This document shows positions 4,635-13,543 of a DNA stretch of 64,000 nucleotides, one piece after another. The stretch lies in assembly GCF_024502345.1 (NCBI RefSeq), contig NZ_JALDNN010000001.1; one strand, written 5' to 3'. This DNA comes from Escherichia coli. GTDB taxonomy: Bacteria > Pseudomonadota > Gammaproteobacteria > Enterobacterales > Enterobacteriaceae. A model generated the notes under the pieces. That model was not told where the DNA came from and did no database searches. It saw only the letters and a list, made by a program, of their open reading frames with translations. Both the position numbers and the translations under genes were made by a program. Each line of letters starts with the position of its first letter. Positions within the stretch are counted from its first letter, which is position 1.

Positions 4635-5405
4635 TTAAATGACTTTGCGAAGATTTTCAGCAAATGCGGCGATCTGTTCTTCGCCGTCGCCTTCAATCAC
4701 GATGCGCTGACGCTCGCGCTGTTTCGGCGCGGCAACCTGTTGTTCAGACCAGACGTCCACGGCGTTAAAACCAATATCCGCCGCCGACCATACCTGGACT
4801 GGCTTTTTCGCCGCGCCGAGAATGGCTTTCATCGAAGGAATTTGTGGGGAGTTGATATCAGTGGAAACAGCAACAACCGCAGGCAGCGGAATGCTTAACG
4901 TTTCTGTTTCATCTTCCAGTTCGCGCTCAACGGTGAGGGTATCTGCCGTCAGGGAGATAATTTTGCTGACGCCGTTAACTGCCGGAATATTGAGGATTTC
5001 GCCTACCAGCAAACCAACCTGCTGGGCATAAAGGTCGGAAGAACCATCGCCACAGAGGATCAAATCAAAGCCTGCTTTCTGGGCGGCTGCAGCCAGTGCG
5101 CTCGCCGTTTGTTGCGGCAGTGCCTGCTCGAACTGGTCATCAATTACCACAATCAGTTCATCCGGGCCGCGCGATAACACATCTTTACGCCCTTTGGCGT
5201 TGGTCAGGGCTTTACCGCCCACACTTAAGGCTGTCACCTGCGCCTCTGCTGCCTGTTGCTTTAGCTGGCAAGCCGCTTCAATAGCGTTGAGATCGTATTG
5301 GCTTATTTTGGCATCGGCTTTGCTGAAGTCTAATGAACCATCAGCATTATTGACCGCAATATCCCGTTCATCAGGCACGCACTTATAGCAAGTAATAATC
5401 TTCAT
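4635..5405 (-). CDS. fixA: Electron-transfer-flavoprotein beta-subunit-like FixA (256 aa)
   Basis: Track ORF (4635..5468) trimmed to internal Met MKIITCYK, the FixA N-terminus as I recall it. Confidence 0.88.
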
Positions 5406-5500
5406 TGCATCTCCAGAAATCATGAAGGAAACGTCGTTCATATCGGTGGTGTTAATTACAGATATCACGCCCTTTAATTTGGAAATAAAACTTTAATCAC

Positions 5501-5511
5501 CAATATTGAAA
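5501..5511. promoter_or_regulatory. Extra copy of the CAATATTGAAA half-site in the cai/fix divergent control region
   Basis: Exact motif match upstream of the two complete inverted-repeat sites. Confidence 0.4.
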
Positions 5512-5535
5512 ATGTCACACGCAGATAAATCCAAC

Positions 5536-5570
5536 TTTCAATATTGTTAAGTTCCTCACCAATATTGAAA
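5536..5570. promoter_or_regulatory. Putative CaiF operator: TTTCAATATTG-N13-CAATATTGAAA
   Basis: Perfect 11-bp inverted repeat with 13-bp spacer, in the fixA-caiT intergenic region. Confidence 0.6.
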
Positions 5571-5592
5571 ACATGGCGTAGCAAAAAGAAAT

Positions 5593-5627
5593 TTTCAATA
5601 TTGTTTTATGGATCACCAATATTGAAA
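5593..5627. promoter_or_regulatory. Second putative CaiF operator: TTTCAATATTG-N13-CAATATTGAAA
   Basis: Second perfect copy of the same 11-N13-11 inverted repeat. Confidence 0.6.
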
Positions 5628-5720: not shown

Positions 5721-5742
5721 AAATGTGATAACAATCACAGAA
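5721..5742. promoter_or_regulatory. CRP binding site (TGTGA-N6-TCACA)
   Basis: Perfect match to both CRP consensus half-sites, TGTGAtaacaaTCACA, in the cai/fix intergenic region. Confidence 0.6.
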
Positions 5743-5875
5743 TGCAGCTTATTGAATACCCATTATGAGTTAGCCATTAACGCGTCCACGAGGTTAATAA
5801 TAATTATATTAAATGTTAACAAAAATAAAACAAACGGGAACGCAAAATAAATATTCGTTTTCACAGTGGAATTAA

Positions 5876-7393
<1,518 letters not shown>

Positions 7394-13029: not shown

Positions 13030-13033
13030 TCTT

Positions 13034-13116
13034 GCCGGATGCGGCGTAAACGCCTTATCCAACTCTGCTGGAGAGCAACCGTAGGCCGGATAAGATGCGC
13101 CAGCATCGCATCCGGC
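13034..13116. repeat. REP/BIME palindromic element cluster
   Basis: GCCGGATGCGGCGTAAACGCCTTATCC and inverted partner between caiE and caiF. Confidence 0.75.
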
Positions 13117-13147
13117 GACCAGGTCGCACGGTATCATCGAAATGACA

Positions 13148-13543
13148 TTAACGACGCATACTCTTTGACAACATCATCTGCCACTTCTGCTCGCGGTTAA
13201 GTTCCGTGAGCGGAACGGCAGGAATACGCGGTGTCTTTCTTACGCCGACTAATTTTTCCCGACTGTTATTGCGCAGGCGCGCGTAAATTTGCTCATCGAT
13301 ATCGACCACTTTAACCAGTCGCTGACACTGGCATCCCCGCCCTTCCAGCTTATTAGGGATCATCTCAACTTCGCAGCTTATTTCTGTGACTTCCGACAGA
13401 ATATAAGTCAGGGTATTAACCGCCTTGCTGTGTTCAATATCGAAATGAATAGAGATCTCTCTTGCTATCACCCACCGATTTTCAGCCATCATCCATTCGG
13501 CGATTAACAAGTAGAGTGGTTTTTCAACATATCCTTCACACAT
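13148..13543 (-). CDS. caiF: CaiF, transcriptional activator of the cai and fix operons (131 aa)
   Basis: Track ORF (166 aa) trimmed to MCEGYVEK; divergent from the cai operon. Confidence 0.85.
   Translation of the reverse strand: MCEGYVEKPLYLLIAEWMMAENRWVIAREISIHFDIEHSKAVNTLTYILSEVTEISCEVEMIPNKLEGRGCQCQRLVKVVDIDEQIYARLRNNSREKLVGVRKTPRIPAVPLTELNREQKWQMMLSKSMRR

Follow-up and report, generated by a model that had tools for sequence, protein, structure and literature searches.

A solitary CaiF-type element in the predicted fixA core promoter is conserved across the cai/fix control regions of Enterobacterales

In the window (the whole stretch of 64,000 nucleotides of Escherichia coli DNA that was analysed), fixA (4635..5405, minus strand) and caiT (5879..7393, plus strand) are divergent, and the intergenic region between them is the control region of the fixABCX and caiTABCDE operons. 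The ATG start of fixA at 5405 (MKIITCYK) follows the K-12 annotation and alignment; the mechanically delimited open reading frame (4635-5468) carries 21 extra codons 5' of this ATG, up to a GTG at 5468 that falls in the inferred 5' untranslated region. The cognate regulator CaiF, a predicted winged-helix protein of 131 amino acids from the Pfam family CaiF_GrlA, is encoded at 13148..13543 on the minus strand. Where caiE and caiF converge (13030-13130), REP-type imperfect palindromes rich in GC were seen (gccggatgcggcgtaaacgcc... / ...gcatccggc). The cai-fix intergenic region was found in 5391/5426 complete E. coli genomes, and an Rfam search returned no RNA element in it.

The motif TTTCAATATTG-N13-CAATATTGAAA occurred twice in this region without any mismatch, at 5536..5570 (fix-proximal) and at 5593..5627 (fix-distal), leaving a gap of 22 bp (5571-5592). 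A preliminary description, made from the window alone, had reported these two perfect 11-N13-11 inverted repeats, and they clearly exceeded the background: no further match was recorded in the 64 kb with up to 3 mismatches allowed, and the expected number was 0 (100 shuffles, none of which matched). Its remark that the core is palindromic was also correct (CAATATTG equals its own reverse complement). Five perfect copies of the 11-mer CAATATTGAAA were present in the 64 kb, all of them intergenic: 5501(+), 5536(-), 5560(+), 5593(-) and 5617(+). At no more than one mismatch, 11 matches were counted versus 1.68 expected, a number that no shuffle attained. One near-match with a single mismatch (13435-13445) lies inside the caiF reading frame, on the codons for HFDIEH, and the others in the window were located at 31124, 45340/45343, 46881 and 47145. 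The right-hand unit extends beyond 11 nt, as ATCACCAATATTGAAA appeared three times (5496, 5555 with one mismatch, and 5612) at spacings of 59 and 57 bp; a repeat finder described this family as 16-nt direct repeats with three copies at 100%, 94% and 100%. The same program recognized the two inverted repeats as tandem duplicates with a period of 57 bp, 75% identical over 51 nt, the fix-distal one being the duplicate of the first.

CaiF operators F1 and F2 were mapped in 1999 (Buchet et al. 1999, Mol Microbiol 34:562, as related in the accessible parts of PMC12083890 and PMC3680233), and the site sequence given in these accounts is TTTCAATATTG-N13-CAATATTGAAA. Compared letter for letter, the two repeats of the window are the published operators F1 and F2, each being one member of the pair. 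They also agree with them in place: caiT and fixA diverge on either side of them, and caiF belongs to the same locus. No difference from the K-12 pair was noted in sequence or position. The resemblance to CaiF operators suggested by the preliminary description was thus borne out, and the paired-repeat finding was already known, both repeats being identical to published operators. All five half-sites are identical between K-12, where protection of the paired sites by CaiF in footprinting has been reported, and the window, the two regions differing by two 1-bp deletions and a few substitutions toward caiT. One E. coli strain, SFE8 (NZ_CP051219.1), lacks the fix-proximal half of the control region, and with it all five CaiF half-sites; only the caiT-proximal 250 bp are retained, and the break coincides with a copy of IS26 adjoining bleO and a fragment of a Tn3-family transposase.

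Both N13 spacers enclose a weak CRP-like site, a feature missing from the preliminary description. The first repeat contains TGTTA-N6-TCACC (5545..5560, centre 5552.5) and the second one TGTTT-N6-TCACC (5602..5617, centre 5609.5), 57 bp apart. They scored 8/10 and 7/10 against the CRP consensus, respectively, and a score of 10/10 was reached by TGTGA-N6-TCACA at 5724-5739 (centre 5731.5), inside the segment 5721..5742 where a perfect CRP site had indeed been announced. In the repeats, the CRP-like motif begins in the last two bases of the left half-site and ends in the TCAC that precedes the right half-site. The pattern TG..A-N6-TCAC was found within 88/88 full repeats examined and, with a CRP-like motif nested in every one of them, the operators would be CaiF-CRP-CaiF composites.

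The abstract of Buchet from 1998 reportedly gives CRP positions of -69.5 and -126.5 at fix, and the same study one of -41.5 at cai, with fix and cai starts 289 bp apart; the abstract is also said to mention a 50-bp stretch, overlapping the fix start, that is required for cai transcription. We take the nested site centred at 5609.5 to be the -126.5 CRP position of fixAp, and the strong site centred at 5731.5 to be the -41.5 position of the cai promoter. The 57-bp distance between the nested sites fits the -69.5 / -126.5 pair. With the centre at 5552.5 as putative CRP site at -69.5 of fixAp, the fix start would fall at about 5483; likewise, the strong site taken as -41.5 would place the cai start at about 5773. 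The distance between these starts is 290 bp in the window and 288 bp in K-12 (where 2 bp are missing from the stretch that leads from F2 to the strong CRP site), i.e. within 1 bp of the reported one. According to the accessible text of the RegulonDB v8 paper, fixAp is activated from two CRP sites, of which the proximal is at -69.5; a -41.5 site for the cai promoter is listed in PMC3680233.

The strong CRP site, assigned to the cai promoter as a class II site, keeps its position across genera. The presumed -10 hexamer of this promoter, CATTAT (5761..5766, plus strand), is likewise conserved as CATTAT or CATCAT. Directly 5' of it, a block GAATACC (within TGAATACCCATTAT, 5754-5766) is conserved from Escherichia to Entomohabitans, while the other spacer DNA varies; this block is no CaiF half-site. 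A half-site was also sought in the cai promoter spacer, and the candidate GCTTATTGAAT (5747-5757) was rejected: it lies at a similar distance from the cai start as the fix-side element does from its own, and is a 7/11 match that is not conserved. In genera devoid of full CaiF repeats, the predicted cai promoter displays a conserved TTGATTAAGATCAC about 25 nt upstream of CATTATAA (loci L045, L046, L048, L049, L051, L052, L021, L042 and L050), some 400-480 nt from the fixA ATG. By its letters, TTGATTAAGATCAC is an FNR-like or FNR/CRP hybrid motif that replaces the perfect CRP site of E. coli.

The perfect 11-mer at 5501-5511 belongs to a solitary CaiF-type element, TCACCAATATTGAAA (5497..5511, plus strand), which matches the right-hand CaiF half plus its extension. 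It appears to be a complete copy of the right-hand element, and no decayed operator. That this half-site (5501..5511) has no partner had been stated beforehand and proved right: the corresponding position, 24 nt leftward, displays 7/11 mismatches, so that the 11-N13-11 symmetry of the K-12 operators F1 and F2 fails here. A hidden left partner was looked for in the other loci as well and rejected, with 4-8/11 mismatches in each of the 54/54 loci that carry the element (best match 7/11). Since the partner is absent throughout, the element is classed as solitary and not as an F-type operator. Nor does it include a CRP component, as merely TAAAA stands at the position of the CRP left half.

On the minus strand of the region, the promoter scan returned GTGACA-17-TAAAGT as sole sigma-70-like match, with the -35 hexamer GTGACA at 5513..5518 and the -10 hexamer TAAAGT at 5490..5495. 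The last base of TAAAGT is 7 nt before 5483, the start derived above from the CRP position. The solitary 15-mer (5497-5511) lies within the predicted fixAp spacer (5496-5512), at about -14 to -28. Combining the inferred start and the predicted promoter, it would fill almost the whole 17-bp spacer. A change of CAATATTG to CAGTACTG is a core substitution that preserves the length of this spacer. The preliminary description had also considered a composite site with another regulator at aaTGTCACAc. This idea did not hold, as TGTCAC reads GTGACA on the fix strand and coincides with the -35 hexamer of fixAp; TGTCACA was rejected as a CRP or FNR site joined to the orphan, no second half-site being present.

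The geometry of the fix promoter is less uniform outside E. coli. TAAnGT was kept in the Escherichia/Citrobacter/Salmonella clade only, and GTGACA was likewise not conserved outside the Escherichia clade. In other genera, the fix strand offers a better -10 candidate, TTTTAT or TATTAT, 5 nt further downstream, with which the solitary site would move toward the -35 position. This candidate is carried by a conserved block at 5482..5493 (plus strand gAAATAAAACtt, read on the minus strand), which stands at a fixed distance from the solitary site in an alignment of 27 taxa. A third conserved block (5456-5468, plus strand TTACAGATATCAC, consensus atA.A..TA.CA) was observed in what would be the 5' untranslated region of fixA. 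It keeps a constant distance of 33-45 nt to the solitary site in 27/27 aligned taxa, with a mean identity of 0.58 versus 0.34 for the DNA in between. It reads approximately TG.TA on the fix strand and could be the extended -10 of a second promoter or the site of another protein.

Conservation was assessed in one genome per species carrying CaiT, which provided 80 loci. Among these, 54/80 were Enterobacterales loci with adjacent divergent fixA and caiT; together with the window they formed a set of 55 regions. The solitary site was kept in 54/55 regions (31 perfect, 20 with one mismatch and 3 with two), which answers positively the question of its conservation across cai loci raised by the preliminary description and supports the candidate third site proposed there. 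We therefore regard the solitary element, on the strength of its sequence and of this cross-genus conservation, as probably a third, unpaired CaiF site. The sole locus in which the site is destroyed belongs to Entomohabitans teleogrylli, where the core is replaced by CGACGTCGC at about position 150; the flanks TCACC and TGAAC remain, and one full inverted repeat is found about 60 bp away.

A gap-free alignment of 27 taxa displayed approximately 2 bits per column over ATCACCAATATTGAA. The adjacent block AAATAA(A/T)AC carried near-maximal information too, and no such block occurred immediately right of the element in these taxa. Mean pairwise identity among 22 genus-level lineages was 0.93 for the 15-mer and 0.81 for the adjacent block AAATAAAAC, versus 0.34-0.35 for neighbouring DNA. 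In the same lineages, the first repeat reached 0.94 in its validated right half and 0.77 in its left half. Within E. coli, the 50 bp comprising the fixAp core and the solitary site were 100% identical in 5293/5380 genomes, and a 50-bp stretch just past the second repeat was retrieved by megablast from 56 genomes only, a contrast that is partly technical. Comparison of the region within Escherichia was uninformative because its fix-proximal half is nearly invariant across the genus.

The full repeats were much more variable in number. Two copies were present in 27 loci (e.g. Escherichia, Citrobacter, Salmonella, Phytobacter), one copy in 10 (Yokenella, Pluralibacter, Atlantibacter, Trabulsiella and others), three in 8 (e.g. 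Proteus, with a strict 59-bp periodicity), and none in 10 (Edwardsiella, Hafnia, Limnobaculum, Leminorella, a Serratia sp. and Budvicia). In Edwardsiella, Hafnia and their relatives, the solitary site is consequently the only CaiF motif. In 42 loci, the first repeat lay 59-61 bp away from the solitary site. Some loci displayed particular arrangements. Instead of one solitary site, Budvicia aquatica has a direct repeat of AATACCT..ATCACCAATATTGAAA (intergenic 302-339), with 27 bp from one copy to the other and no inverted partner for either. Leminorella and Limnobaculum (L021, L042, L050; intergenic 25-36) bear an additional perfect TTTCAATATTG that adjoins the ribosome-binding site, about 25 nt 5' of the start codon of fixA, and the Limnobaculum loci (L042, L050) also possess a one-mismatch copy just upstream of caiT, at about 630.

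The distribution of the motif follows that of its presumed regulator. Throughout the 80 loci (about 1.3 Mb), no copy of a 14-mer motif was found outside intergenic regions. In the 10 loci from outside Enterobacterales (9 of them from Shewanella), a search found no solitary site, nor any caiF within the fetched locus. The half-site was thus conserved where CaiF is encoded and missing where caiF was not found in the locus. Salmonella enterica subsp. arizonae and diarizonae (L014 and L043) displayed no caiF homologue within 8 kb downstream of caiT; their five half-sites are all intact, and caiF may be further off or displaced by an insertion.

CaiF matched the Pfam profile CaiF_GrlA (PF07180) with 27.7 bits for a cut-off of 25, and its sole sequence match in the PDB was GrlA (4KT5 chain C). 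The AlphaFold model, built with 19 orthologues, reached a mean pLDDT of 75.6 and exceeded 90 over residues 11-60; it predicts a winged helix with a long beta-hairpin that carries the invariant GRGCQCQR. A fold search with this model placed GrlA on top and also matched MarR-like proteins. According to the accessible part of a published alanine scanning, substitutions at Y11, N43, Y47 and R75 of CaiF impaired the response. These four residues were invariant in 19/19 aligned orthologues, from Escherichia to Hafnia, which fits the invariance of the solitary DNA element.

GrlA, the only characterised relative of CaiF, offers the closest parallel. In EHEC/EPEC (Islam et al. 2011, as recounted in PMC10877973), it is reported to activate the distal LEE1 promoter by binding between its -10 and -35 elements, in a spacer whose 18 bp are suboptimal. 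In this mode of activation, a shortened spacer is said to bypass the activator. In its solved complex with GrlR, GrlA is described as monomeric. The arrangement TTGACA-N18-TACACA was confirmed here in O157:H7 genomes. Like CaiF, GrlA belongs to the CaiF_GrlA family, and the solitary CaiF element likewise stands in a promoter spacer. Yet, the LEE1 spacer is 18 bp long and suboptimal (TTGACA-TTTAATGATAATGTATTT-TACACA) whereas that of fixAp has 17 bp, so that the suboptimal spacing of LEE1 does not extend to fixAp. Neither upstream inverted repeats nor nested CRP sites figure in the accessible descriptions of LEE1, and binding to the spacer is reported for GrlA while it is deduced for CaiF. Our own comparison of the LEE1 spacer with the CaiF element was unconvincing, and a resemblance between them was rejected. 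Given that GrlA is reported inside a promoter spacer, the solitary element is most likely, in our analysis, a functional site for a single CaiF subunit.

The location of a regulator target inside the spacer of the activated promoter is also known from the MerR family. MerR proteins are dimers on palindromes in over-long spacers of 19-20 bp. A MerR-type operator was rejected for fixAp, since the CaiF winged helix is unrelated to MerR, the spacer has 17 bp and the element corresponds to a single subunit. The paired repeats call to mind another class, the composite activator-CRP sites (e.g. MelR-CRP at melAB and CytR-CRP). The half-sites of F1 and F2 flank and partly overlap a weak CRP site, suggesting joint occupancy; they differ from these examples in that both half-sites of a single inverted repeat enclose the CRP site concentrically, and the solitary element differs by having no CRP site at all.

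The explanation that we consider reasonably probable combines F1 and F2 as CaiF-CRP composites with an ancestral solitary site, from which a single CaiF subunit would act on RNA polymerase at fixAp. Its observed part comprises the sequence match to the published operators, the place in the predicted promoter, the conservation and the homology to GrlA; from these we infer occupancy of the solitary site by CaiF and an activating role. Each 11- to 15-bp element would be the site for one winged-helix subunit of CaiF. At F1 and F2, which would lie about 70 and about 127 bp upstream of where fix transcription starts, two such subunits would bracket a CRP dimer; the cai promoter would be served by the strong CRP site (5724-5739). 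A further subunit would bind the fixAp spacer and act directly on RNA polymerase in the manner of GrlA; in E. coli, CaiF and CRP bound 59 bp upstream would help or stabilise it. The solitary site would be the ancestral and universal CaiF target, and the full repeats would be lineage-specific additions, formed when a unit of about 57-59 bp was duplicated in tandem.

Several points weigh against direct action from the spacer. The available summaries of the 1999 footprinting (PMC12083890, PMC3680233) cite two CaiF sites only, F1 and F2, which indicates either that isolated binding to the solitary site is probably weak or that the stretch was outside the probe. The LEE1 spacer does not resemble the CaiF element. 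Between -10 and -35, repression is at least as typical as activation, and the 17-bp spacer of fixAp is optimal while the 18 bp at the GrlA target are suboptimal. The fix start is inferred, and the -10 candidate of other genera lies 5 nt downstream. Finally, Entomohabitans has lost the solitary core. We put forward, more tentatively, a broader generalization: the unpaired half-site would be an ancestral universal operator for a single subunit, the CaiF/GrlA family would act inside spacers, and F1/F2 would be later enhancer modules present in 0-3 copies. An ancestral operator of this kind would explain the reported need for the fix-start stretch in cai transcription.

That same 50-bp stretch, reportedly required over the fix start for a cai promoter located about 270 bp away, can also be read in favour of an architectural role, in which an extra CaiF subunit at the solitary site extends the half-site array so that one higher-order CaiF/CRP nucleoprotein complex activates both promoters; RNA polymerase at fixAp would then not be its main target. 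The array has features that agree with this: half-site orientation strictly alternates (+ - + - +), 24 bp separate the solitary site from the left half of the first repeat and 20-22 bp the right half of the first repeat from the left half of the second, the Proteus array is strictly periodic (four units of 59 bp), and the half-sites add up to an odd number (1, 3, 5 or 7) in the 54 loci with the solitary site, with the exception of Budvicia and its two direct copies. However, the ten loci without an array keep the solitary site and the same neighbouring promoter blocks, and the 59-bp spacing would follow just as well if CRP and CaiF had to stand at a set distance from the fix core promoter; we therefore hold an architectural role to be rather unlikely. 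A negative role, with CaiF between -10 and -35 competing with RNA polymerase and limiting fix expression (e.g. at high CaiF levels or without its coenzyme-A effector), would suit both the classical repressor position of -14 to -28 and the missing CRP partner, which every activating repeat possesses. It is nevertheless improbable, because GrlA activates from a spacer, CaiF is described in the accessible literature as an activator of fix only, and loci endowed with the solitary motif alone would leave CaiF no activating target.

The two remaining explanations dispense with CaiF binding and are poorly compatible with the conservation data. The 15-mer might have been kept as promoter DNA or as the target of another protein, its likeness to CaiF elements being a legacy of duplication. 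In its favour, the footprinting is cited for F1 and F2 only, and the neighbouring core-promoter block AAATAAAAC is conserved too. But a constraint of 2 bits per position is not normal for a sigma-70 spacer, conservation covers precisely the CaiF element with its TCAC extension and stops where the element stops, and the motif is confined to caiF-type loci, all of which makes this reading very improbable. Hardly credible is chance, or a neutral relic of tandem duplication. The repeats did arise by duplication and the region is AT-rich, yet a region this large should hold only about 4e-4 perfect 11-mers (an estimate), and the site was kept in 54/55 loci though the surrounding DNA is at about 35% identity. 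A literature search that covered sources other than the original CaiF papers retrieved no description of the solitary 15-mer, and no ChIP, SELEX or footprint results on this stretch.

The CaiF-type element that is best conserved across Enterobacterales is the solitary one, and it lies in the fixA core promoter. It raises a small and testable question rather than a major surprise. Were it bound by CaiF, the accepted two-site picture of cai/fix control would be incomplete. In published carnitine biosensors, the fix promoter is, as far as their accessible descriptions go, the CaiF-responsive output, and binding would provide these constructs with a defined core element to tune. CaiF would also join GrlA as the second member acting inside a promoter spacer, which would point to a mechanism shared by the whole family.
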